DNA from: an uncultured Acidobacteriota bacterium
GTDB taxonomy: Bacteria; Acidobacteriota; UBA6911
DNA length: 64,000 nt
Direction: 5' to 3'
NCBI GenBank assembly: GCA_963827655.1
Contig: CAWHCF010000010.1
Location: 128,001-192,000 of the forward strand
Below the pieces are notes generated by a model. It was not told the DNA's origin. It made no database searches and saw only the letters and a program-made list of their open reading frames with translations. Position numbers and translations under genes: made by a program. Below, in pieces: positions 28,894 to 50,564 of the stretch (its first letter is position 1; every line of letters begins with the position of its first letter).

Positions 28894-31365
<2,472 letters not shown>

Positions 31366-37704: not shown

Positions 37705-38194
37705 TCAAGGAGGGGAAAAATAGGGAAGGAGGCGCTGGTAGGTCTTCGGCAGATCTTCAGGCAAAACACGGGTTTCCGCGATCACCGACAGAAAGTTGGA
37801 ATCGCCGGCCCAGCGAGGCAGGACATGCATATGAAGATGGTGGGCGACGCCGGCCCCCGCCGCGCGGCCCAGATTGAATCCAAGGTTATAGCCGTCGGGC
37901 TTGTACTCTGACTCGAGCGCTTTCTCGCATCGCTGAGCAAGGTCGGCGAACTCGTGACAGCTCCTCGCTGCTGGCCTCCCGCAGGAAGGGTATGTGTCGA
38001 TTCGCGACGATCAGAATGTGGCCCGAGCAGTATGGAAAGAGGTTCAAGACGACGAACGAACTCGTGCCGCGGTGAAGCACGAAGTTAGCTTCGTCCCGGT
38101 CTTCCGACAGAATGCCGCAGAACACACAGGCATTCCCGGATCGATCGAGGTTGCTGACGTAATCGAAGCGCCACGGCGTCCAGAGACGATCCAT
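37705..38194 (-). CDS. HIT family hydrolase (Ap4A phosphorylase-like; +1 indel near 37956)
   Basis: LWTPWR, CVFC, NLFPY.SGH. After the indel: GYNLGFNLGRAAGAGVAHHLHMHVLPRW.GD. Confidence 0.9.
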
Positions 38195-38470
38195 TTACAA
38201 ATTGATGAGATCCTTGATTTCCTTGCCGGGTTTGAAATAGGGGACCTTCTTGGCGGGAACGCTGACTCCTGTGCCGGTCTTCGGATTGCGTCCCTGCCGG
38301 GAGGAGCGATGCCGAATTCGGAAGGATCCGAAGCCCCGGAGTTCGATCTTTTCACCCCGCTGAAGCGAGTCGGTAATGCTGTCCAGGACCGTTTGCACGA
38401 TGACCTCAGCGTCCTTCTTGGTCAAATCCGACTGGTTAGCGACTTCTTCTACCAATTCTGCTTTAGTCAT
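38195..38470 (-). CDS. ihfB: Integration host factor beta / HU family protein
   Basis: MTKAELVEEV, IELRGFGSF, RQGRNPKTG, VPYFKPGKE. Confidence 0.88.
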   Translation of the reverse strand: MTKAELVEEVANQSDLTKKDAEVIVQTVLDSITDSLQRGEKIELRGFGSFRIRHRSSRQGRNPKTGTGVSVPAKKVPYFKPGKEIKDLINL

Positions 38471-38475
38471 GACGT

Positions 38476-39384
38476 TCATCTCCAAAGGTATGCGAAGCGG
38501 ATTTGAGACTCCGAGCGATCAGGATTCAGGGCGACGACGCTGCGGGAATCTCCGAATAAGAGGTCGATCAGAGAAATCTTTTTCTTCGGCGGCGAGACCA
38601 GTCTGGGTTCCCCCGAGATCCCAACCATTCTGGTGGCTGCGGCAAGTGCGTCTTGAAAGGTTCCTATCTCATCAATAAGACCGTTTCCCATGGCTTCCTG
38701 GCCGGTGAAGACCCTGCCGTCGGCCAGTTTGCGGACGTTCTCGAGGTTCATTTTGCGCCCCGTCGAGACCGCCGTGACGAATTGGTCGTACATGTTATTG
38801 ATCAGGCCCTGGAAGTACGCCTTCTCGGCGTCGGTGAGCGGGCGCGTTGGAGAACCCGCGTCTTTCAGCTCTCCGCTCTTGATCACGACGCTCTGCATTT
38901 TTGCCCATTTCAGCAGGTCACCGTAGTTGTACCATTCAGCGATGACGCCGATACTTCCGGTGATGCTGCCAGGGTTGGCGAAGATCTTGTCTGCGGCGCA
39001 GGCTATGTAGTAACCGCCGGAGGCCGCTACCGATGACATGCTGACCACGACTTTCTTCCTGGTTTCGGCCCGGAACTTCTTCACGGCTTCGTAGATTTCC
39101 TGCGACGCAGCAACGCCTCCACCAGGACTGTTGATCCGCAGCACGACGGCCTTGATACCTGGACGACTTCCGTATTCTTTCAACTGATCGTTGAAGTCTC
39201 TTGAATCGAAGATTATACCTTCGAGATCGAGTACCGCAATCTGGCCGGACGAAAGCGAAAAGGAGGGGGAAGACGAGCCGCCCGAAAAAATCAGGGCGAC
39301 GGCAATGAGCGAGAGGGTAAAGAAGAGAAGAGCGCCGCCCCCCAGCACCAACCATAATAGAAAGTTCGACCTGTTTGCCGGCAT
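38476..39384 (-). CDS. sppA: Signal peptide peptidase SppA (short form)
   Basis: N-terminal TM; LRINSPGG, AASGGYY, TGSIGV, ADGRVFTG. Confidence 0.95.
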   Translation of the reverse strand: MPANRSNFLLWLVLGGGALLFFTLSLIAVALIFSGGSSSPSFSLSSGQIAVLDLEGIIFDSRDFNDQLKEYGSRPGIKAVVLRINSPGGGVAASQEIYEAVKKFRAETRKKVVVSMSSVAASGGYYIACAADKIFANPGSITGSIGVIAEWYNYGDLLKWAKMQSVVIKSGELKDAGSPTRPLTDAEKAYFQGLINNMYDQFVTAVSTGRKMNLENVRKLADGRVFTGQEAMGNGLIDEIGTFQDALAAATRMVGISGEPRLVSPPKKKISLIDLLFGDSRSVVALNPDRSESQIRFAYLWR

Positions 39385-39435
39385 AGCTCTGACCTAACTG
39401 GACACGGGACGTTATCCCTCGGCATCCGCCGAACC

Positions 39436-39465
39436 GCGGACCGTTAACTCATGAGCACGGTCCGC
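39436..39465. terminator. Hairpin between rpsA and sppA
   Basis: GCGGACCGT-N12-ACGGTCCGC perfect 9-bp stem; no clear U-tract. Confidence 0.35.
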
Positions 39466-39574
39466 AGTCGTCCTTGGTTCTGAGTCGCAAGACGGGGGAC
39501 AAGATTCTTGTATGAAGTCGGCGATAGGCCCCTGTTCAGGGATACTCTCGGAGCGTCACCGATTCGTGAACCGG

Positions 39575-41369
39575 TTACTCCGGCTCTCCTTTCTTGAGGC
39601 GTGAGATCTCCCGAAGCTGGTCGCCGAGGCGCTCGCCCATCGAGGTGCTGCCTGAATCTGCCGAGGCCATGTACGAGGTGAATTCCAGCCTTGGTTCGTC
39701 TTCCTTCATCGCTTTGAGGCTGAGTCCAATCTTCTTTTCCGGGAGGTTCAGCTTGATGATCTTCATATCCACCTCCTGGCCTATGTTAAGGAACTCCGCC
39801 GGCTTCTCCACGTGTTTCTCGTCCAGCTCGGACACGTGGCACAGTCCTTCGATCCCTTCCTCGAGCTCGACGAATGCGCCGAAGTTTGTCATGCGCACAA
39901 CTCTTCCTTTAATCACGTCGCCCGGGTTGTGCCGGTTAAACCAGTCTTCCCATCGATCAGGCTCGAGCTGTTTGATTCCCAATGAGAGTTTCTGATTCGG
40001 GGCATCCACACTCAACACCACCGCCTGCACCTCGTCCCCTTTCTTCAGCATTTCCGAGGGGTGTTTGATCCGCTTGGTCCAGGACATGTCCGAAACATGC
40101 ACCAGGCCGTCGATACCCTCCTCTACTTCGATGAAGACCCCGAAATCAGTAACGTTTCGCACTTTGCCTGTTATCACGGTACCGGGTGCGATACTTCGAC
40201 TCGATGATGTCCCATGGATTTGGTTCGGTCTGCTTCAGGCCGAGCGAGATTCGGCGGGCTTCGGTATCGATGTCGAGCACCACGACTTCAACCGGGCTGC
40301 CGACAGAAACGATCTTTGACGGGTGTTTCACCCTCTTGTTCCACGTCATCTCGGAGATGTGAATCAATCCCTCGATGCCGGGTTCCAGTTCGACGAAGGC
40401 TCCGTAGTCGGTCAGGCTCACGACTTTGCCCTGAACCCGGATGTTCTTGGGATAGCGCATGTCGGCGTGAAGCCACGGATCTTCCGTAAGCTGCTTGTAG
40501 CCCAGGGAGACGCGGCCATCCTCGCGGTTGAACTTGATGACCTTGACTTTGACCTTATCCCCGACCGCGAAGATCTCTGATGGATGATTGACTCGTCCCC
40601 AGGACATATCCGTTATATGGAGCAAGCCATCGACGCCCCCCAGGTCAATGAACGCGCCGTAGTCGGTTATGTTCTTGACAATCCCTTCCATGACCTTCCC
40701 GTCTTCCAGGACCTCCATGGTCTTGGCTTTCTCTTCCTGCATCGCCTCTTCAAGGACTGCCTTCCGGGACAGAACGATGTTACCGCGCTTCTTGTTTACC
40801 TTGATGACGCGCATCTCGAACTCTTCGCCGCGGAGGCTATCGAGATTCCGTACCGGGCGCAGATCAATTTGGGATCCCGGGAGAAAAGCCCGCACGCCGA
40901 TGTCGACAGCCAACCCGCCCTTGATCCGTTCAATGACTCGTCCTTTCACGACAGTTCCGTCGCGGTAGGCTTTCTCAATTTCGTCCCAGATCTTCATCCT
41001 CTCGGCTTTTTCGCGCGACAACACCACGTAGCCGCTGGAGTCTTCGGTCTGCTCGAGAAAAACATCGACCACATCGCCGACCTTGATCGAGTGGCGGCCG
41101 CGGTCATCCAGAAACTGCTCGAGCGGGATGATGCCTTCGGATTTGAAGCCGACATCGACAACGACCCCGCTGCCTGAGAAGGCGATGATCTTTCCTTTGA
41201 CTACCTCTCCCTCGGAAAAACGCTGGGTTCGTCCTTCATAGGCGGCCAGCAGAGTCTTGAAGTCGTTTTCGGCCTCCTGGTCGGCGGTGACGGGCGCATC
41301 GACGGGTTGCGTGTCGCCGGGCGAAGTCGCGCTCCCTGCCAGTTGCGGATTGTTTACATCAGATGCCAT
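39575..41369 (-). CDS. rpsA: 30S ribosomal protein S1 (+1 indel near 40190)
   Basis: Six S1 repeats (DYGAFIDLGGVDGLLHITDMSW and similar); removing one base gives SKYAPGTVITGKV and joins ORFs 40146-41414 and 39575-40177. Confidence 0.96.
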
Positions 41370-41558
41370 TCCTGCCTCCTGACGTCCCACGGACAGAAAC
41401 TTACGGCGTTCCAATCGCGGGATTCTTTGTATTCAATTAAGAATAAGCCTAATGCGTGATCGGACCTGAAGAGGAAATTACGTGCGGCGTCGCAGTATTC
41501 CAGTTGAAGCAAATCCAAAGGTCAACATTCCTTAGATCACTAGAAATAACAGCCCTTC

Positions 41559-41587
41559 TTTATACTCTTTGCCGAAAGCTTTGTCAA
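41559..41587 (-). promoter_or_regulatory. Near-consensus sigma70 promoter for rpsA
   Basis: TTGACA-N17-TATAAA on the minus strand. Confidence 0.75.
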
Positions 41588-41694
41588 GTTAAGTGAATGC
41601 GCGGTTTAGCGAAGCACCTTGCGCATGCTCTCCGGATGTGGCGCTGCGAAAGGAATACTACCAGGACGCAAAGACACCAAGAAGCGCGGGCCTG

Positions 41695-44600
41695 TCAATA
41701 AAGGGGCCCTGGGTCACCCTGGCAAATGAACGCTCCCCAGTAGAGCGGATCCGGATCCTCGTCCTTGAGCGCGAGTTGCGCATCGCGCAACGCATCGGCT
41801 CGCGGCTGGCCCGCCAGCATGCGGCGATAAAAGTCAGTCATGAGCTTTTGAGTCTGCTGGTCCGGTACTTTCCAGAGACTCATCACGAGGGTCTTGGCTC
41901 CCGCCAGCACGAAGGCTCTGCGCAATCCGAAGACGCCCTCGCCCGTCTTGATCTCGCCCAGCCCGGTCTCGCACGCCGACAGGGTGACGAGCTCGGTCGC
42001 CTGCAAATCCATTCCCGAAACATCCTCGGCGTTCAGGAGCGCGTCTTCGGCTTCGCCCGGCAGATCGCCGCGCTCGATCCATGTGTTTGCGCCGGCCAGC
42101 GCCAGGCCGGATCGCAGCAACGGACTCTCGATGCCCAGCGCGGCGAGACGATTGAATGCAAGACCGAATCCGGCCGCTCCGAGATCGCGCGCGCCTTGCG
42201 GGCGGCCGCCCGGCTGGTCAGACAGGAAGAATCCGTGGGTCGCGAGGTGGAGAATGCGCGGCGAACGACAGGATTTGACCCTGGACTCGAGCGCAATCGA
42301 ATCGAGCAGCGGCTTCACGCGCAGCATTTCGGCGATCCGTTCGCCTTCGATTCTGGTTCCCGGCAGACGTTTGAAATGGAGGTTCCCCCGATCGAGGTCG
42401 CGCGAAAGTCTCATGGGGGAGTCCTCGAGCGATCTGGTCGCGGCGCTCGCCGGCGCCGTCAAATCAAAATCGGGATCGGCGATGACCATGGGGTCGCCGG
42501 CCTGCCCCTTGACCGAGTTTCCGAATCGCATCACGTCGCGGCCCGTACTGAGATAACTGATGTGGTAATCGTCAATCAGCCGGCGTCCATCGCCAAGCTC
42601 CAGAACCTCGAACGGAAGGCGCGAGAGTTCGCCTTCGGGCGCGAGCAAAAGCTGCCGGCAATCGCCCAGCACCGGCAGAAGCGGGTCGAAGACGGCACGG
42701 CGCAGCGCGACGCCGCAATCCGATGTCGATTCGACCGGCGCTCGAGGCGGTGCCGCCCCAAGGTCTCTGCCGCTCCCGCCTCCGATCTCGCCGGTGAGCT
42801 GGGCGCGAAAACAGCCGACCAGGCGATCGATCTCATCGGCGTCGCCGAGGTTGATCATCCGCAGATCGTGCGGTCGTGAGGCAGGCAGCACAAAGGCGGC
42901 ATAGCGCGCCTTCACGAACAGCTCGTCCGCCAGGGCCTGCGGATTGTCGAAATCAAAATCGAAGAAATGGACGAACTCGATCAGGGCCGAGCCGGCCGGG
43001 AGAGCCGCGGCCACCTTCGTCAGATCGACCTCGCGCATCTTCTGTCCCAGCCCGACCTCGGGAATCTGGAGCGCCAGTTGCCGTTCCAAAGCTTCTCGGC
43101 GCGCCTTCAGCTCGCGCAGCGCCCGAAGGTGAACCTCGAGGCCGTCGCTCCCCGGACCTGAGAGCGTCATCTGCGAGATGCTTTGCCGCACCGAGGCCAG
43201 CTCGCGCAAGTGAGGTTCGAGGTGGGGATACTTTCCGCTGAGCACCGAATCGCGCTGGGCGGCCAGAGCCTCCGCGCCAATCCCTTTGCGCTTGAGCACG
43301 AGGTTCATCGCCGCCTGGACCGCCGGGGGGCTGCCGATCAGATGCTGCGAAACCAGGGAAATCGAGCAGAGGAACCTCGACTGGATGTGCCGGACATAAC
43401 CCATCCGCTGGCTTTCGGAGGCGAGCGAGAAGAATTCGTGAATGGATTGGTCCGTGATGGATTCAATCTGTACCATCAGCTCCCGGGCTTCTTCATAGCG
43501 CTTGGTCGCGGCGCACACAAGCAGCAGATTGCTGAGCACGGCGGCCCGCAGCGGATGCTCTTCTCCCACCAGCGCGCGATACGCCTCCGCCGCCTGGCGC
43601 AGTGCCATCTCGGCGATTTCGTAGTTGCCCAGCCGCAACAACAGCAGACCGAAACCGTTGAGGATGCTGGTGTGTTCGGGAACCGGACTCTCTTGCGCCA
43701 GGCCGATGGCCTGCTCGAAGAGCGCAAGAGCGTCATCGTACTTTTCGCGATGCGTGTATATGGTCGCCAGGTTGCCCAGGGCGGTGATGTAGTACGGTCC
43801 CCGTTCGCCCTCAACATCACGGAAGGCCGCCACGGCTCGTTTGGCGTAATGCTCGGCTTGCTCAAGCTCGAGGGTATCTATGTAGAGCTTCGCCAGGGCG
43901 TTCAAGGTTGTGGCTTTGTGCATGACCATGACGCCGGTCGCATCTTCCAGTATCTGGAGCGCCCCGAGGAAAGCCGTTTCGGCCGGCCGGTAGTCTCCAA
44001 CGTTGTGATAGAGATCTCCCAGATAGAAAAGATCCACTGCGTAGAGCCAGTGGTTTTCTCCCAGCTTCGAGCCGTGAATCCTCATCGCCTGCTGCGCGAG
44101 CGGGATCCCGGTCTTGTATTGGCCCAGGTTCCGGTAATGAATGGCCAGATTGTTAAGGCTGATCGCGAAGTCCTCGTGGTCTTCGCCGAGCACTTTGCGT
44201 CGAATCTCGATGGATTCGAACAGGCATTGTTCAGCAGACTTGAAAGCCCCGGTCCGCCCGTAGACAGTTGCCATGAGGTTGAGCGTCTGGGCATATTCCG
44301 CAGTCTCGACGCCCGCCGTTTCGCGCTGGAATTCCAGCACTCGCCTTAGAAGTTGCTCGGCTTCGTCGTACCTCCCAAGCGCCAGGGAGCTCGTGGCCAG
44401 AAGACTCAGGGTGTTGAAGTAAATGGGATGGTTCTCCCCCAGGACACGGCTTGCAAGCTCGCGCAATCGCTCCGCTCGCGGCCGGGCGTCAGCCATTTTG
44501 CCGACGTTCATCTGGAACCCGACAACGACATTCAGCAGCTCCACGTATTCGGCAGTCTCTTCCCCCCCGGCTCGCTGCTTGATCTCGAGTGTCCGTTCGA

Positions 44601-45211
44601 GCCATGGCAGCGCTTCGTGGTGTCTGCCCGCTTCCGCGTAATACCAGGCCAGCGTTTCGACCAGCTGGCCGTAAACCGGATGGTCTTCTCCGAGGTGTTT
44701 GCGGTTCGGTTCTACAGCCTGCAGAAGGAGGGGCTCCGCCTCTTCGTGGCGGCCCTGCTGCGAATAGATCAACCCGAGGGTAGCCAGATTATCGGCGTAT
44801 TGCGGGCTATCCTCGCCCAGCGCAGACGGAATCAACTCGCGCAGGGCTTCATACCACGGCAGGGCCGATTCCATTCTTCCCGTCTTCAGGTAGAGCATGG
44901 CCAGATTGGTCATGGCGGCAACGGACGAAGGATGCTGCTTGCCCGTGGTGTCGGTGTAGCAAGCGATCGCGCCCAGGTATAACTTCTCGGCATCCTCGTG
45001 GCTTCCCTGCGCCGCGTAAAGAAAGGCGAGGTTGTTCATGCTATCGCCGGTTGAAGAACCCTCCATCCCGAGGTTTTGAGAGGCCAAGGCGAATGCGAGC
45101 CTGGCGCGGGTCAGCGCTTCCTCGGTTTGCCCTTGCTGGATGAGTTCGATAACGGCTCTTGTTGAGAGTGTCAATGGTGTCGGGCGTGATCTCTGAATCC
45201 TCTTCCGGCAT
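41695..45211 (-). CDS. TPR-CHAT (caspase/separase-like) protease; probable true start 45211 with a +1 indel near 45157
   Basis: More than 10 kinesin-light-chain-type TPRs (LGEDHP...SLNNLA); CHAT motifs LPFEVL, LPGTRIE, ILHLATHGFF (His), LSACETG (Cys), AGAKTLVMSLWKV, YWGAF. AAAGGA RBS precedes ATG-PEEDSEITPDTIDTLNK. Confidence 0.93.
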
Positions 45212-45272
45212 TTTAAGGGGTCCTTTCTGGAAATGATCCCATCGCGTGATTGGTCGGAAGCGCGCCAGGCCG

Positions 45273-46277
45273 TCACATCACATCGAAGTAAGTGGACAGT
45301 GCCATCCACTGATTGGCCTCCATTCCGTGAAGCCGCGCGAGTAATTCGTCAATGTCCGTTCGAGAAAGAACCCGGGCAGGAACCCGCGGATTCAGCGGCA
45401 TCCAGTCGAGCCCCAGCGGATGATCGGTGAGGACGGCCAGGAGATGCTCGCGTCCCGGCTTGCCCGTCACCACAAACGATTGGTAAGTGGATCCCGGCCG
45501 AGGCAAATAGCTGCGGCCGGCCTTGAATCGGGTGTCGGGCGCAAACCACGACGGACAGAGACAATAGATCTGGCCGCTCGTGCCCTCGTTCAGAAGCAGG
45601 AGGTCGCCTTCGCGTTCTGATTCAATGGCCAGACAGACGCGGTCGCCCGGGCGGAAGCCATGTTGCGCTTCCTCCTGCGGAGCGCCCAGGTCGCGCAGTA
45701 TGGGACGCGCGGCGCCGCGGCTTGCCGCCCCTGCGGGAACCGGCCAGATGCGGTCGGTGAATCTCGCAATCGATCTCAGGCCTTCGATCCCGTGCGCCAG
45801 GGGTTGCGGTTGAGCAACCGGCTTTGTGCCGGCGAGGTCAACCCTGGTTCGGCAATCGACGCCGGCGAGCTCGAGCGATTGCAGGACCTGAGGCAGCCAC
45901 TGCTCGGCGGCGCGATCGATGACTTCGATCCATTGCCAGCCTTCCAGCCAGTACTCGATCTGTTCGGGAAGGTTGATCGGGTCCAGCAGAATCGGCAGGT
46001 ACGGACGCTCGTACTTCCAGGCAAGCTGAATCTCCTGTTTGACGTTGCGTGAGCGCATCGAAGCGTCAGTCGTCATGAGCATCAGCACCTTGCAGTTCTT
46101 GATACCGCGAACGATTTCGGGGCCGTAGTTGAGACCTCCGGCAATCTTGTTGCGATCAAGCCAAAGCTTCACGCCGGCCTCTTCCAGCTGACCGGCGATT
46201 CTGATCACCCGTTCGCGGTCGCGGCTGGAGTAGCTTATGAAGACTTCGGCGTCATCGACTGAGACGGGTTGCTTCAT
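45273..46277 (-). CDS. TIR domain protein fused to a C-terminal DUF4384-like domain
   Basis: TIR: VFISYSSRD, LWLDR, SRNVKQE (catalytic Glu position), LPILLD. C-terminal FRPGDRVCLAIESEREGDLLLLNEGTSGQIYCLCPS...GKPGREHLLAV fits the DUF4384 pattern. Confidence 0.85.
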   Translation of the reverse strand: MKQPVSVDDAEVFISYSSRDRERVIRIAGQLEEAGVKLWLDRNKIAGGLNYGPEIVRGIKNCKVLMLMTTDASMRSRNVKQEIQLAWKYERPYLPILLDPINLPEQIEYWLEGWQWIEVIDRAAEQWLPQVLQSLELAGVDCRTRVDLAGTKPVAQPQPLAHGIEGLRSIARFTDRIWPVPAGAASRGAARPILRDLGAPQEEAQHGFRPGDRVCLAIESEREGDLLLLNEGTSGQIYCLCPSWFAPDTRFKAGRSYLPRPGSTYQSFVVTGKPGREHLLAVLTDHPLGLDWMPLNPRVPARVLSRTDIDELLARLHGMEANQWMALSTYFDVM

Positions 46278-46321
46278 GGCTCAACGGGAATCAATAGAAC
46301 CGAATCGTAAAAGCAATCAAA

Positions 46322-46414
46322 GTGTCTTGGTGTTTCTTCGTGACTTGGTGTCTTTGTGGTTAGAGCTGTCAAACAAATACCACGAAGACTCAAAGACACG
46401 AAGAAACACCAGGA
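46322..46414. repeat. Largest inverted copy of the ~9-bp-unit intergenic repeat
   Basis: cttggtgtttcttcgtgacttggtgtctttgtggt pairs with accacgaagactcaaagacacgaagaaacaccagg. Confidence 0.85.
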
Positions 46415-46427
46415 ATCGTGCGCCAGC

Positions 46428-47934
46428 TCATAGCCGGTGAAGCCATTCGCGCAGTGCAGGGTAAAGCTCCCGATAGAGTGGAAATCGTTTAGCGTAGAAG
46501 CGGGACCGCCTGGGATTCGGCCGGTAGGTGCGTTCGATCCGCGAGATCCTCAAAGCTGCCTCGCGCGCATTGGGGTAGACCCCAATGGCCGTACCCGCAA
46601 GAATCGCGGCCCCGAGGCACACCGCTTCCGGGACGCGCATCGCCGAGACGGGTTTGCCGAGCAGGTCGGCCTTGAGCTGCATCCAGAACGCAGACTTGGC
46701 GCCGCCTCCGGTTGCGCGAAAGGCGCTGATCGAAGCTCCGCACTCGCGCAGCACCTGGACGTTGAGCGCCATCTCATAGGTGATCCCCTCCAGGATGGCG
46801 CGAATGATTTCCCCCTTGGTGGTAGAGAGTCTCAGACCTGCCAGGACGCCTTTCGATTGGGTATCAAAGTGAGGCGTGCCGGTCGAGGTGAAATGAGGAA
46901 GCAGCAGGAGGTCCGTCGGCTCTTTTGCCGCCTGGGCGATCAGCAGGGCGTAGACGTCCCGGCCGGTTTCCCGGGCGCGCGCCGTCTCTTCCGCTCCCAA
47001 AACGTCGCGGTACCACCGGAGCAGCGAGCCCCCCGAGAAATTGAACGTGAGCGCCACGTAGAGGCCCGTGACGACATGGGGGTAACAAGCGATGTTGTTC
47101 TCGAGAAGTTGCGGATGAATGACGCGCGTTCCAAGCGCCGGCGTGATGCATTCTACGGTGCCGGTCGCGTACAAGCCGACGTTGGGCTCCGACCACTCCC
47201 GCGCCGAGCGCGCCACACGGCTGGTCGTGGCCACCGGTGACGATCGCGACGCCGCGCGGGAGGCCGAAGGACCGCGCCGCCTTCGATCCAAGCTCTCCGA
47301 TTGCGGTCCCCGGGGGGTAGACGCGAGCCAGGCGTTCCGGGGCGATTCCCGCGATATTCAGCATCTTCGGGGACCAGTCGACGTGATCGACGTCCAGGAG
47401 CATTGTCCGGGAAGCCAGGGAGGAATCGATGGCGGGCTCGAGGCCTAGCCGGTAAAAGAGAAGATCCGAGTAGCACAGGAAGTAATGCGCCTTGCGGAAA
47501 ACGTCGCGCCGCTCTTTCTTCCACCACAGAATCTTGCTGGCGGTGTACATGCCGTGGAGCGGCATCCCGGTAATTTCGAAAATTTGCTGGCGCGGGATCC
47601 GCTCCTCCCACCACGCCACCCATGGAGCCGTGCGGGCATCGAACGTCACGATGGCGTTGTGCAGGAATTGGCCGTTGCGGCCGACGGGCGTAACGGCCTC
47701 GCCTTGGGCCGCGACGGAGAGCGCGCGAATCGGATCCTTTCGAGTCGCTGCCGCAACCTCGCGGATAACCTCGCGTGCCGCCCTCATGACACGGGCGCTA
47801 TCGAGTTCGATCCAGCCCGGGCGAGGAAAATGAAGCGGGTACTCCCGGTAGGCCGACGCCAGAATCCGGCCCTCTTCGTCGAAGGCGACTGCTTTGCAGC
47901 CCGTGGTGCCGATGTCGATTCCAAGTAGACTCAT
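46428..47934 (-). CDS. FGGY-family carbohydrate kinase (xylulokinase-like; +1 indel near 47190)
   Basis: LGIDIGTTGCK, GGHDQ. After the indel: ATGT, RAILEG, TGGGAKS..WMQLKAD, LGAAILAG. Confidence 0.9.
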
Positions 47935-47989
47935 TTTCTTTGGTGGTTTGCGTCCTTGCGGTAAAGTGTGCCGCCAAGCTGCGAAGGCG

Positions 47990-48017
47990 ACTTTAGCAAG
48001 GATACGTTCCTTGTCAA
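47990..48017 (-). promoter_or_regulatory. Sigma70-type promoter for the FGGY kinase
   Basis: TTGACA-N16-TAAAGT with TG extension. Confidence 0.5.
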
Positions 48018-48155
48018 TCCTGTCCGGCGAGTCAAAACAACATCCACCACAAAGACGCGAAGACGCAAGGGTCGTGGTATATACTACCCGGTTGATCCAC
48101 AGGGTTCGTGCTTCGTGTCTTAGTGATAATTTGATTCAAGAAAGCCAGGTCCAAA

Positions 48156-49643
48156 ATGAAGAACAAACTTCGATTCGTTGTTGGGATCGTACTGCTGGCC
48201 GGAGCGGTTGACGTTCTCCGAAGTCAGCCCGAGCCTGGATTCGCGCCTCTTTTCAATGGCAAAGATCTCTCGGGATGGGACGGCAATCCCAAGTTCTGGT
48301 CGGTCCGAGACGGAGTCATCACAGGCCAGACAACCGTCGAGAGCCCGACCCAGGGTAACACCTTCCTGATCTGGAAGAACGGCACGGTTGAGGATTTTGA
48401 GCTTCGGCTCTCGTATCGAATCGTAGGGGGCAACTCGGGGATCCAGTATCGCAGCAAGGATCTGGGCAACTGGGTGGTCGGAGGTTACCAGGCAGATTTC
48501 GAAGCAGGCAAGACGTACTCGGGAATTCTGTACGAGGAAAAGGGCCGCGGCATTCTGGCCAAGCGCGGCGAGAAGACCGTGATCGACTCCGCGGGCAAGG
48601 TAGGGGTAGTCGGCGCTGTCGGCGATCCGGCTGAATTGCAGGCAGTCATCAAGCATGAAGACTGGAACGATTATGTGATCGTGGCCCAGGGCAATCACCT
48701 GGTGCACAAAATCAATGGCCGCGTGACCGCGGATGTGACCGACGACCAGGCTGACAAGCGAGCGATGTCCGGCATTCTCGCACTCCAACTTCACGCCGGG
48801 CCGCCCATGACGGTCCAGTTCAAAGAAGTTCGTCTGAAGCGCCTGAAGTCGGAAAAAACCAAGAAGATTGCGCTGGTGGCGGGCACCCCCAGCCACGCTG
48901 CTCTGGCGCACGAATTCAATGCCGGCGTTACTCTACTGAAAAAGTGCCTGGACGGTGTGCCGGGCGTTCAAGCCAGCGCTTACCTCAACGGCTGGCCGCG
49001 CGATCCGACTGCTTTCGATGGTGCCGATACGATCTTGCTTTACATGGATGGGGGCTCCAAACATCCCCTGATCCAGCCCGAGCGCCTGGCTCAGTTTTCC
49101 GAGTTGATGAAGAAGGGGGTGGGGCTTGCCTGCGCGCACTACGCTGTTGAAGTTCCGAAGGAGCAGGGAGGGCCCGAGCTCTTGAAATGGATCGGCGGAT
49201 TCTACGAACGCGACTACTCGATCAACCCGCACTGGACCGCGGAGATCAAGACATTACCCAAGCATCCGATCACCAGAGGCGTCGCAGCGTTCACGCTGCG
49301 CGATGAATGGTACTTCAATATGCGGTTTGCGCCCTCAAGCGCCGCCCTGGTCCCAATTCTGAAAGCCACCCCTCCCGATGATACTCGGCGCACGGCGGCG
49401 GCCAAGGAGCATCCCGGGCGTGAAGAAGTAGTCGCATGGGCTTTCGAGCGGCCCGATGGCGGCCGCGGTTTTGGTTTCACGGGAGGGCATTTCCACATCA
49501 ATTGGGGCGATGACAACTTCCGCAAGCTGGTGCTGAATGCGCTGCTCTGGACGGCAAAAATGGAAGTTCCGGCTGCCGGCGTGAGCTCCAGGGTCACGGA
49601 AGACGAACTGAAGCAGAATCTCGACCCTAAACCGCCGCAATAG
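48156..49643 (+). CDS. Secreted DUF1080 (3-keto-disaccharide hydrolase-like) plus ThuA-like fusion
   Basis: LFNGKDLSGW, GNSGIQYRS, GYQAD, WNDY, GILALQLH; then GLACAHYA, DEWY, GGRGFGFTGGH. Confidence 0.88.
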   Translation: MKNKLRFVVGIVLLAGAVDVLRSQPEPGFAPLFNGKDLSGWDGNPKFWSVRDGVITGQTTVESPTQGNTFLIWKNGTVEDFELRLSYRIVGGNSGIQYRSKDLGNWVVGGYQADFEAGKTYSGILYEEKGRGILAKRGEKTVIDSAGKVGVVGAVGDPAELQAVIKHEDWNDYVIVAQGNHLVHKINGRVTADVTDDQADKRAMSGILALQLHAGPPMTVQFKEVRLKRLKSEKTKKIALVAGTPSHAALAHEFNAGVTLLKKCLDGVPGVQASAYLNGWPRDPTAFDGADTILLYMDGGSKHPLIQPERLAQFSELMKKGVGLACAHYAVEVPKEQGGPELLKWIGGFYERDYSINPHWTAEIKTLPKHPITRGVAAFTLRDEWYFNMRFAPSSAALVPILKATPPDDTRRTAAAKEHPGREEVVAWAFERPDGGRGFGFTGGHFHINWGDDNFRKLVLNALLWTAKMEVPAAGVSSRVTEDELKQNLDPKPPQ

Positions 49644-49649
49644 TACGCG

Positions 49650-50564
<915 letters not shown>

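Follow-up and report, generated by a model that had tools for sequence, protein, structure and literature searches.

Two genes on the minus strand of the 64,000-nucleotide stretch of DNA analysed here (the window), encoding a predicted TPR–CHAT protease and a TIR–linker–DUF4384 protein, share the pentapeptide RDLGA, most likely an indication of the point at which the protease holds or cleaves its partner and of the means by which it keeps itself off. We lean towards regarding the gene pair as a CRISPR-free protease–effector module working like Csx29–Csx30 of type III-E CRISPR.

A sequence-only reading of this DNA had reported RDLGA three times over the two proteins, and the sequence confirms this, together with the residue numbers given (R848, R1041 and R195). 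Its 12-base ranges span RDLG alone and not RDLGA (full coordinates in Table 1). The near copies that it listed are present (RDLD at 42391-42402, RSLE at 42424-42435), and the RDLGA copies do use different codons, so they do not stem from a DNA duplication. Pfam and the catalytic residues also bear out its three placements, namely ahead of the CHAT core, in the His–Cys interval, and 13 residues upstream of the Pfam DUF4384 start in the partner. Site A lies 17 residues ahead of the Pfam CHAT start and has the family form 'ITGE..xR[DG]LGAxP'; site B lies at the catalytic His +16 residues, within a flexible insertion of ~30 residues between His and Cys. The partner family consensus is R-[G/D]-[L/M]-G-A-P-Q-[D/E]-x-V-Q-H-G. 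A fourth six-frame RDLGA (30802-30816, plus strand) is antisense to a gyrB-like gene and was rejected as not belonging to a real protein.

Table 1. Genes, motif copies and candidate catalytic residues of the pair, in window coordinates.
Feature	Residues	Position	Strand	Sequence	Basis or remark
TPR-CHAT protease gene		41695..45211	-		ORF and Pfam; P0001 is the longest single ORF (1204 aa, GTG 45309)
Predicted catalytic His (LATHGFF)	His1025	42235..42237	-		invariant in 98/98 rows of alignment A2 (H406 of first row)
Predicted catalytic Cys (LSACETG)	Cys1113	41971..41973	-		invariant in 98/98 rows of alignment A2 (C494 of first row)
CHAT site A, RDLGA	848-852	42754-42768	-	AGAGACCTTGGGGCG	numbering of the 1204-aa GTG-started ORF
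CHAT site B, RDLGA	1041-1045	42175-42189	-	CGCGATCTCGGAGCG	
CHAT site D, SRDLDR	969-974	42388-42405	-		related motif, in the loop preceding 'RLPGTRxE'
TIR-linker-DUF4384 protein P0002		45273..46277	-		334 aa; predicted substrate/effector
Partner motif, RDLGA	195-199	45681-45695	-	CGCGACCTGGGCGCT	in the 334-aa TIR protein
Candidate catalytic glutamate of TIR	Glu82	46032..46034	-		invariant in alignment A1

The protease gene probably starts at the ATG at 45211-45209. One extra base in the window at 45154-45155 shifts the frame after codon 19; in the homologues P0123 and P0124 the protease reads through in a single frame, and contigs of relatives have one base fewer at 45154. The frameshift in this assembly counts against the protease–effector reading. 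Pfam finds TPR_12 (eight stretches) and CHAT (PF12770, residues 865-1199, E = 2.6e-69) in the protease, and no domain besides TPR and CHAT. The best Foldseek matches of the CHAT model are 17 Csx29/TPR-CHAT chains (E from 1.4e-13 for 7y84_C to 4.5e-10), followed by separase, with SAVED-CHAT 8tl0_B also matched (E = 2.8e-4); the matches agree with a caspase-haemoglobinase fold resembling that of Csx29 or separase, and the TM-scores are only 0.38-0.46 because the CHAT model is flexible and multi-domain. Judged by sequence and model, the protein is a clan-CD cysteine protease with His1025 and Cys1113 as its dyad and with predicted activity. All three CHAT motif sites fall in segments that AF2, run on residues 620-1204, models with pLDDT below 50 (842-858, 953-972 and 1031-1060).

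The partner contains TIR_2 (residues 12-121, 4.9e-21) and DUF4384 (208-287, 3.2e-11) by Pfam, with the motif in the loop between them, an order that fits a payload–loop–docking domain layout in which docking and cutting are predicted. Its TIR fold matches PDB TIR domains including SARM1, AbTir and SPARTA (Foldseek), and the residue opposite Glu82 in the CRISPR-associated TIR Cat1 (chain 9mud_K) is the Glu of 'WDELEQA', at what we take to be the position of the catalytic glutamate in TIR NADases. AF2 models the partner with mean pLDDT 86.9 and pTM 0.85; RDLGA is coil there, in a block of pLDDT 72-74, and the motif segment may pack on the domains instead of forming a free linker.

Nearly all unique [TIR/kinase]-DUF4384 proteins (196/206) have R-[G/D]-[L/M]-G-A, lying exactly 43 residues upstream of a YCLCPS anchor in 186 of the 196. 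Position 3 is Leu in 181 and Met in 12 of these partners (Leu/Met in 193/196). R195 and G198 are invariant in 58/58 partner sequences, and conservation reaches 90% or more at L197, A199 and Q201; the partner linker around the motif (about residues 140-160) is variable. In kinase-DUF4384 proteins without TIR (L029, L098, L103) the motif is retained, as is a neighbouring CHAT that bears it, so that the constant part over the TIR, kinase-TIR and kinase architectures is the motif plus DUF4384, not TIR.

Among 142 unique CHATs (the 119 closest CHAT cluster representatives plus locus ORFs), the strict motif occurs at site B in 55, every one at the catalytic His+16, and many CHATs with the His+16 motif have a further copy ahead of the CHAT core; in the same set, 33 of 44 site A motifs lie 39 residues upstream of an LLLAPDG anchor. 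Within the 119 closest representatives the strict motif is found at site A in 46 and at site A or B in 60, about half, while among the three sites retention is widest for the site D pattern S[RH][DE][LFIVM]x[RQHK] (89/119). When 33 unique CHAT domains adjoining DUF4384 proteins were considered, the motif aligned in the same three loops. No motif copy at all is present in the divergent CHATs with 'LS[AS]CWS' that are linked to motif-keeping partners, so self-mimicry is not required for the system. Conservation in homologous pairs, which the sequence-only reading had named as a check, is near-universal in the partners and takes the form of fixed positions in the linked CHATs.

Such constancy is also what docking without cutting might produce. 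On this account a binding pocket, such as one on DUF4384 or on the TPR array, would take up the motif as a short linear ligand; the partner motif would bind in cis beside DUF4384, the protease loops would present the ligand in trans and recruit or exchange partners, and cleavage would take place elsewhere or not at all. The single distance to DUF4384 in 186/196 partners suits this account, as do the motif segment's moderate confidence, rather than disorder, in a partner model of high pTM, the company of motif and DUF4384 in all three architectures, and the divergent CHATs that have no copy of their own although their partner retains the motif. However, docking leaves unexplained the His+16 placement of 55/55 site B copies, which is expected of an active-site mimic, and Leu/Met at position 3 in 193/196 fits the P1 rule measured for Csx29; other DUF4384 proteins of the same genome lack the motif, which therefore is not a general DUF4384 ligand. 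We consider docking rather unlikely, while allowing it some weight.

Specificity was apparent at several levels. The motif is absent from the three other DUF4384 proteins of this genome, R[DG][LM]G was not found in the four other CHAT ORFs of this genome that were read, and it occurs in 0/7 best CHAT paralogues from five genomes whose TIR-DUF4384 gene is without a close TPR-CHAT neighbour. Linkage of the two genes is common: a CHAT match was found at 18 of the 21 unique loci having at least 5 kb on either side, and at a 19th (L001) the CHAT was found by Pfam. The genome's stop-to-stop ORFs of at least 100 aa, 6.6 million residues in all, contain 21 copies of RDLGA, three of them within this gene pair. 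All five of its residues are abundant, and the pentapeptide might have recurred by chance in Gly/Ala-rich loops; indeed, at least one shared pentapeptide appeared in 38% of shuffles of both proteins (n = 20000). A pentapeptide twice in the CHAT protein plus once in the TIR protein, however, was obtained in just 33/20000 shuffles (0.165%), and fixed-position conservation over hundreds of homologues of both proteins and absence from the paralogues leave chance a next to negligible probability.

The D or G of the motif tracks between the partners. G occurs in the protease loops at 0/12 loci with D-type partners and at 11/15 loci with G-type partners, the four mismatched loci (L018, L044, L062, L063) having a G-type partner against D- or N-type protease loops. 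Eleven further pairs, inferred because their contigs are of identical length, comprise eight D with D, one G with G and two G with D, and at L029 a partner with RGMGA is matched by FGMGA in the CHAT loop. Sites A and B are concordant in 23 of 29 single CHATs, and in the four partners that bear another copy of the motif, 57-62 residues further upstream, the two copies agree in D or G. On the partner tree there are five D/G changes, giving one independent pair on well-supported branches and five on all branches; with so few independent switches (~5) a sign test cannot reach 0.05 and the association has no phylogeny-corrected significance, the same limit on the sign test applying to site A versus site B. 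A single transition turns D into G and the genes are inherited jointly, so much of the association can be put down to common descent. The co-variation in homologous pairs that had earlier been suggested as a check is thus visible as D/G tracking, but over only ~5 independent switches.

Matching variants in both partners would also arise if the motif copies were decoys for a foreign (for example phage) protease or modifying enzyme whose action triggers the system, so that both genes would track the invader's specificity, and every protease copy does lie in an exposed, low-confidence loop. No candidate enzyme was seen and the loci read show nothing pointing to one; the His+16 position and the Csx29-like Leu/Met are more simply explained via the CHAT's own cleft, and we judge the decoy scheme very unlikely indeed.

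Returning to the protease–effector reading, the motif with its fixed positions and family-wide conservation, its confinement to linked pairs, the gene linkage and the folds are observations; we infer binding and cleavage of the partner, a scissile bond, autoinhibition and an effect on TIR, along the following lines. The TPR array would be the presumed sensor, and the payload would be a TIR with NADase-type Glu82 here, or a kinase plus TIR or a kinase alone in relatives. DUF4384 would serve as the handle through which the protease holds its substrate, while R-[G/D]-[L/M]-G-A would enter the active-site cleft and be cut. The cut would part TIR from DUF4384, leading to TIR self-association and NAD+ consumption or signal production. 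The two RDLGA loops of the protease and its SRDLDR loop would be cis substrate mimics that fill the cleft at rest (pseudosubstrate autoinhibition), are self-cut upon activation, or both.

The sequence-only reading had taken R-D-L-G-A, cut after Arg, as both autoprocessing or autoinhibition site and substrate site. The check on conservation and co-variation turns out in favour of this reading, which is supported in part, but a cut at site B would divide the catalytic His–Cys dyad, and site B therefore resembles a pseudosubstrate rather than a processing site. Cleavage after Arg is suggested by analogy with separase and metacaspases, the one basis for that choice; were Arg P1, the conservation would lie mostly on the prime side, which is unusual for caspase-like proteases and speaks against it. 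With Csx29, whose P1 is Leu or Met, as the closest solved relative and Leu/Met at motif position 3, a cut between L and G of R-D-L-G-A is at least as likely as one between R and D.

More tentatively, we entertain the possibility of a portable address code, in which R-[G/D]-[L/M]-G-A plus DUF4384 would mark any payload (TIR, kinase or kinase-TIR) for cleavage activation, and the copies in the protease would be built-in pseudosubstrates co-evolving with the tag. If true, the system would stand beside Craspase as a self-gated relative that works without CRISPR, and separase-style autoinhibition through substrate mimicry would have its first example in prokaryotes, with matched D-type and G-type protease/tag pairs. 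In the literature searched, we found no account of a shared motif in such a protease–partner pair.

Several known systems offer comparisons. In the SAVED-CHAT to PCaspase cascade of type III-B CRISPR, as far as the material consulted describes it, a CHAT protease likewise specifically processes one neighbouring protein; it differs in being activated by cA3 via a SAVED domain and in having another protease as substrate. In bacterial gasdermin pairs an adjoining caspase-like or CHAT protease strips an inhibitory C-terminal part off the effector, an analogy drawn in the accessible part of bioRxiv 10.1101/2022.08.17.504292. The same logic, with a neighbouring protease removing the effector's C-terminal part, is proposed here, but no gasdermin is present, and the partner is by Pfam a TIR effector with a folded DUF4384 C-terminal part.

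In type IV Thoeris, TIR activates a caspase-like protease via N7-cADPR, according to the portion of bioRxiv 10.1101/2024.10.24.620036 available to us. With this precedent for a TIR and caspase-like pair, and with Glu82 conserved, the flow might be reversed here: TIR would sense infection, a nucleotide signal would activate the CHAT, which would degrade many proteins, and the motif would be incidental. The constant element here, however, is the motif plus DUF4384, kept together with a motif-bearing CHAT neighbour even in the TIR-less kinase-DUF4384 partners; the protease has TPR and CHAT alone by Pfam, and the motif common to both proteins at fixed positions would be left unexplained. PADLOC gave weak generic TIR matches for the partner (ThsB, 1.7e-5) and a TPR model only for the protease, with no caspase or Thoeris effector for the protease and no specific Thoeris match. 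We regard reversed flow as quite unlikely.

Separase provides the second-best structural matches to the CHAT model. It cuts after Arg in ExxR and self-cuts at similar sites, and it is held off by pseudosubstrates, namely securin and its own autoinhibitory loops. It differs from the present protease in its motif, with conservation on the opposite side of Arg; the pair here is bacterial, with a TIR protein as the partner and with no securin-like gene.

The closest comparison is Craspase. The accessible parts of PMC9825189 and bioRxiv 10.1101/2022.08.17.504292 report that Csx29 cleaves the loop joining the NTD and CTD of Csx30, between L407 and D408 (Sb) or M427 and K428 (Di), and that Csx30 is cut solely when full-length; they also report that the CTD binds Csx29, and species specificity is proposed to stem from the Csx30 loop and CTD. 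SbCsx29 is described as tolerating no P1 residue other than Leu and Met (PMC9825189), DiCsx29 as cleaving after Met427, and one group of Csx30 CTDs as DUF4384 (both bioRxiv 10.1101/2022.08.17.504292). No Cas7-11 or crRNA partner was seen beside our pair (38000-50000), and no cas gene in the related loci read; by their translations, the ORFs flanking the pair in that interval are S1-, SppA- and sugar-kinase-like and housekeeping-looking, and the related loci hold CHAT, kinase, Hsp70, TPR and unknown proteins. The payload here is TIR (or kinase), whereas the Csx30 NTD is anti-sigma-like, and the protease here repeats the substrate motif in loops of its own, for which we found no counterpart in the portions of the Csx29 reports at hand. 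The likenesses are that Csx29 is the best structural match and has the same TPR plus CHAT build as this protease, that the layout of the partner fits the payload, flexible loop and C-terminal domain of Csx30, and that Leu/Met at position 3 of the partner motif, after which the scissile bond may lie, would agree with the P1 rule of Csx29.

The genes for the TPR-CHAT protease (P0001) and its TIR-DUF4384 partner (P0002) lie adjacent on the minus strand, with the protease ORF downstream of the partner ORF; residue numbering follows these ORFs. The catalytic dyad of the protease, His1025 (LATHGFF) and Cys1113 (LSACETG), shows no substitution in any of the 98 aligned relatives. The top structural matches of an AF2 model of protease residues 620-1204 (mean pLDDT 77, pTM 0.82) were the Csx29 TPR-CHAT chains of type III-E CRISPR complexes (E 1.4e-13), followed in the list by separase, the DdvA anti-sigma factor, gingipains and SAVED-CHAT. 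For the AF2 model of the whole partner (mean pLDDT 86.9, pTM 0.85), the Foldseek list consisted mostly of TIR matches, and its TIR half resembles TIR domains including those of SARM1, AbTir and SPARTA. In this TIR, Glu82 never varies and lines up with a Glu in the TIR of Cat1, at what we take to be the catalytic Glu position. The raised GC over the gene pair could reflect acquisition, or simply Ala/Gly-rich coding.

Coordinates of the gene pair, the motif-bearing loops and associated features (window positions unless a locus, L, a contig, C22, or residues are indicated)
Feature	Location	Strand	Details
TIR-DUF4384 protein, P0002	45273-46277	-	334 aa; TIR_2 residues 12-121, DUF4384 208-287
TPR-CHAT protease, P0001	41695-45309	-	1204 aa; eight TPR_12 stretches and C-terminal CHAT 865-1199, E 2.6e-69
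Site A	RDLGA, residue 848		'ITGE..xR[DG]LGAxP', before CHAT core
Site D	SRDLDR, residues 969-974		'GRxSRDLDR', before 'RLPGTRxE'
Site B	RDLGA, residue 1041		'HGFFLxDQxRDPNxExR[DG]LGA', after catalytic His
ATG shared with P0123 and P0124	45211-45209	-	frame shifts after codon 19
Extra base in protease gene	45154-45155	-	codon ~20
rpsA (ribosomal protein S1)	40146-41414 and 39575-40177	-	split, two overlapping ORFs
FGGY-type sugar kinase	46864-47934 and 46428-47291	-	split
GC across gene pair	42001-46000		0.634 and 0.603
GC of downstream 4 kb	38001-42000		0.555-0.563
Fourth six-frame RDLGA(AP)	30802-30816	+	antisense to gyrB-like gene
Small DUF4384 proteins	C22: 147061-147864, 153347-154111, 154139-154894	+	within 8 kb; no tag
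1234-1290-aa protein genes	L016:11585-15433, L017:11577-15446, L023:11235-15041, L058:5229-8930, L061:6564-10265
Gemmataceae chromosome locus	L001:1501-10981		all genes on one strand
TPR-CHAT genes flanking one TIR-DUF4384 gene	L062:2-2386 and L062:7068-9404

Homologues 87-90% identical to the protease (P0123 and P0124) begin in a single frame with MPEEDSEITPDTID..NKSVIELIQQ. The window gene has the same ATG, followed by a frameshift at a single base that close relatives do not have. The relatives' contigs in two soil sequencing runs, X1 (depth 44) and X3 (depth 13.5), have one base fewer at 45154, and the translations of rpsA, an essential gene, and of a neighbouring sugar kinase were also found to be split. 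This makes an indel in the assembly a likelier explanation than a dead protease gene.

RDLGA was located, as the sequence-only reading had claimed, at CHAT residues 848 and 1041 and at partner residue 195, with different codons for all three copies; the RDLD and RSLE variants it had pointed out in the CHAT protein lie at residues 970 and 959. All three CHAT sites fall inside low-confidence loops of the AF2 model (842-858, 953-972 and 1031-1060). At least one pentapeptide common to both proteins arose in 38% of shuffles, and a pentapeptide with two copies in one of the proteins and a single copy in its partner in 33 of 20000. Genome-wide, RDLGA occurs 21 times in 6.6 million translated residues, and three of these occurrences belong to this gene pair. 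Taken from the window alone, the evidence for a shared motif is only suggestive.

The proteome scan proposed earlier as a way to find further RDLGA substrates was run and returned no convincing one among the genome's stop-to-stop ORFs. Outside the gene pair these hold 18 other RDLGA and 24 RGLGA occurrences, mostly in short or implausible frames, and none precedes a DUF4384. A further six-frame match in the window lies antisense to a gyrB-like gene and belongs to no real protein. The tag was not found in the three other DUF4384 proteins of this genome, which are small, clustered on one contig and likely secreted, judging from their hydrophobic N-termini. R[DG][LM]G was likewise not found in the four other CHAT ORFs read in this genome, nor in any of the seven best CHAT paralogues from five genomes that have TIR-DUF4384 and no close TPR-CHAT neighbour; one of the seven does contain RDFG, 57 residues ahead of the His. 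The motif is no general property of CHAT or DUF4384 proteins.

The sequence-only reading would have been undermined by a motif that is not conserved in homologous pairs; conservation holds, in the partners at a fixed distance and in the CHAT proteins in three fixed loops. The partner family is tight, comprising 334 proteins with E <= 0.001 among 7772 candidates. Across a 58-member alignment, R195 and G198 never vary, conservation of L197, A199 and Q201 reaches 90% or more, and the part of the linker lying a few dozen residues before the motif is variable. Among 206 unique partners pooled from several searches, 196 contain R-x-[L/M/I/Y]-G-x, in 186 cases exactly 43 residues before a YCLCPS anchor. 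Motif position 2 is occupied by G in 116 sequences, by D in 78 and by E and K in one each. L predominates at position 3 (181, against 12 with M, 2 with Y and 1 with I), as does A at position 5 (183). The ten partners lacking the motif comprise four anchor-less or truncated sequences, two with an offset anchor, two with the Gly swapped or substituted, one fragment and one motif-free protein (L101).

Both kinase-TIR-DUF4384 and kinase-DUF4384 proteins carry the same tag at the same spacing, and the constant unit is thus the tag plus DUF4384, not the TIR. A Ser/Thr kinase domain precedes TIR-DUF4384 at six loci (L007, L012, L022, L077, L080 and L096) and stands directly before the tag and DUF4384 at four (L029, L030, L100 and L103). 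By Pfam, the 22 longer partner forms in the large protein search consist of 18 kinase-TIR-DUF4384, 3 TIR-DUF4384 and 1 kinase-DUF4384. A raw count of 9/79 partners with at least two motifs includes four false cases (kinase glycine loops in L007, L012, L077 and L080) and one downstream copy (L022). In the four true cases (L023, L058, L061 and L071), the second copy lies 57-62 residues upstream and has the same D or G as the first.

In the CHAT domains of 33 unique loci including the window, after removal of five exact duplicates (L039, L040, L064, L089 and L092), the motif falls into three common loops of the alignment. Of 142 unique CHATs, 55 have the strict motif downstream of the catalytic His, with a spacing of +16 in every one, and site A lies 39 residues before an LLLAPDG anchor in 33 of 44. 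The 119 closest CHAT cluster representatives include 46 with site A, 43 with site B, 60 with either and 89 with site D. Chance recurrence would readily explain a single pentapeptide common to both proteins; set beside the fixed positions in both families, we consider it extremely improbable.

Linkage was assessed at 21 unique loci for which 5 kb or more was available on either side; a CHAT match to an HMM built here was present at 18. As to the remainder, L001 has a CHAT recognised by Pfam, L016, which is orthologous to L017, has one just past the end of L017, and L045 carries a 1786-aa WD40 protein in place of CHAT. In some loci the CHATs are divergent, with 'LS[AS]CWS' and no motif copy, and a 1234-1290-aa protein is encoded between both genes. 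The members of this protein family (33-74% mutual identity) have no Pfam match; at three of the five loci holding one, the partner has two motif copies. In L001, TIR-DUF4384 follows a 1225-aa N-terminal-CHAT protein, an Hsp70-family protein and an uncharacterised 565-aa protein, and in L062 a single TIR-DUF4384 gene has a TPR-CHAT gene on either side of it.

The residue at motif position 2 was compared between partners and proteases, excluding six loci in which the partner motif or CHAT loops are truncated, absent or ambiguous (L027, L032, L034, L057, L084 and L103). At the 12 loci with a D-type partner, no protease loop has G (0/12), and site A is D in all 11 having it. Among the 15 with a G-type partner, the protease has G in one or more of its loops at 11, the exceptions being L018, L044, L062 and L063. 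Eleven further pairs, presumed from source contigs of identical size, which is no proof of adjacency, comprise 8 D/D, 1 G/G and 2 with a G partner and a D protease. In L029, RGMGA in the partner is matched by FGMGA in the CHAT loop. The partner tree (27 proteins, motif columns removed) shows five changes in each trait, giving one independent pair on well-supported branches and five on all branches; the CHAT tree (30 CHATs, loops removed) gives two and four independent contrasts, respectively, between sites A and B. Both sets are too small for a sign test to reach 0.05, and the direction of the association is never opposite in either tree. The predicted co-variation is therefore borne out in direction, and its significance after phylogeny was not reached: with few independent contrasts, a D-to-G change that is one transition and co-inherited genes, D/G tracking is consistent but not demonstrated.

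One study (PMC9825189) describes that SbCsx29 cuts Csx30 at Leu407/Asp408 in a long flexible loop, accepting only Leu or Met at P1, with Asp at P2 and Ile at P3 also mattering. According to the same study, only full-length Csx30 is cut and the fragments part afterwards; the loop and CTD are proposed as the source of species specificity, and CTD binding to Csx29 is attributed to another group (PMC9825189). As the layout of the partner fits that of Csx30, we hypothesize that DUF4384 docks onto the protease, that the tag, 13 residues upstream of DUF4384, would enter the protease cleft and be cut, and that the cut would free the TIR. The tag copies within the protease itself would mimic the substrate, and the one at His+16 would most plausibly be a pseudosubstrate, because a cut there would split the dyad. 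The R|DLGA cut put forward by the sequence-only reading is one option for the scissile bond; by analogy, R-D-L|G-A deserves at least equal weight, because it would fit the Csx29 rule and the Leu/Met preference at position 3.

Prediction of a complex between CHAT residues 760-1204 and the whole partner, with their own alignments, gave ipSAE of 0.00 and 0.01, which speaks neither for nor against binding. The partner tag is modelled by AF2 at moderate confidence and is possibly packed, which would suit a docking element that is not cleaved; given the Leu/Met restriction, we regard this as unlikely. Signalling in the reverse direction, as in Thoeris IV, would give the TIR a role upstream and sits poorly with the TIR-less partners; it appears improbable. 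A tripwire for a foreign enzyme we rate as slightly more improbable still, the fixed His+16 copy being explained more simply by the cleft of the CHAT protease. The fixed His+16 spacing, the restriction to Leu/Met at position 3 and the partners lacking a TIR favour the proposed docking and cleavage of the partner by its own protease, and the state of the partner tag in the AF2 model and the motif-free divergent CHATs call for caution.

Full-text literature searches, including papers mentioning DUF4384, found no description of the CHAT/TIR-DUF4384 pair or of a common motif, and PADLOC gave no system-level match for the gene pair. The prediction, made at sequence level, extends to a large family of 334 partners (E <= 0.001) and thousands of related TPR-CHAT proteins, and it specifies the probable substrate, narrows the cut to five residues, and names a docking domain and a self-inhibition device. 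If true, it would give a reason for the frequent company of DUF4384 and caspase-like proteases, tie bacterial TIR activation to proteolysis, and offer short matched protease/tag pairs for engineering. Protease-triggered immune effectors recur from bacteria to animals, as in Craspase-Csx30, gasdermins, SAVED-CHAT and caspases with TIR proteins. The pair would belong to this known class of protease-activated effector modules. Its closest characterised counterpart is Csx29-Csx30, whose substrate has a layout that the partner here fits, with a TIR as the putative payload.
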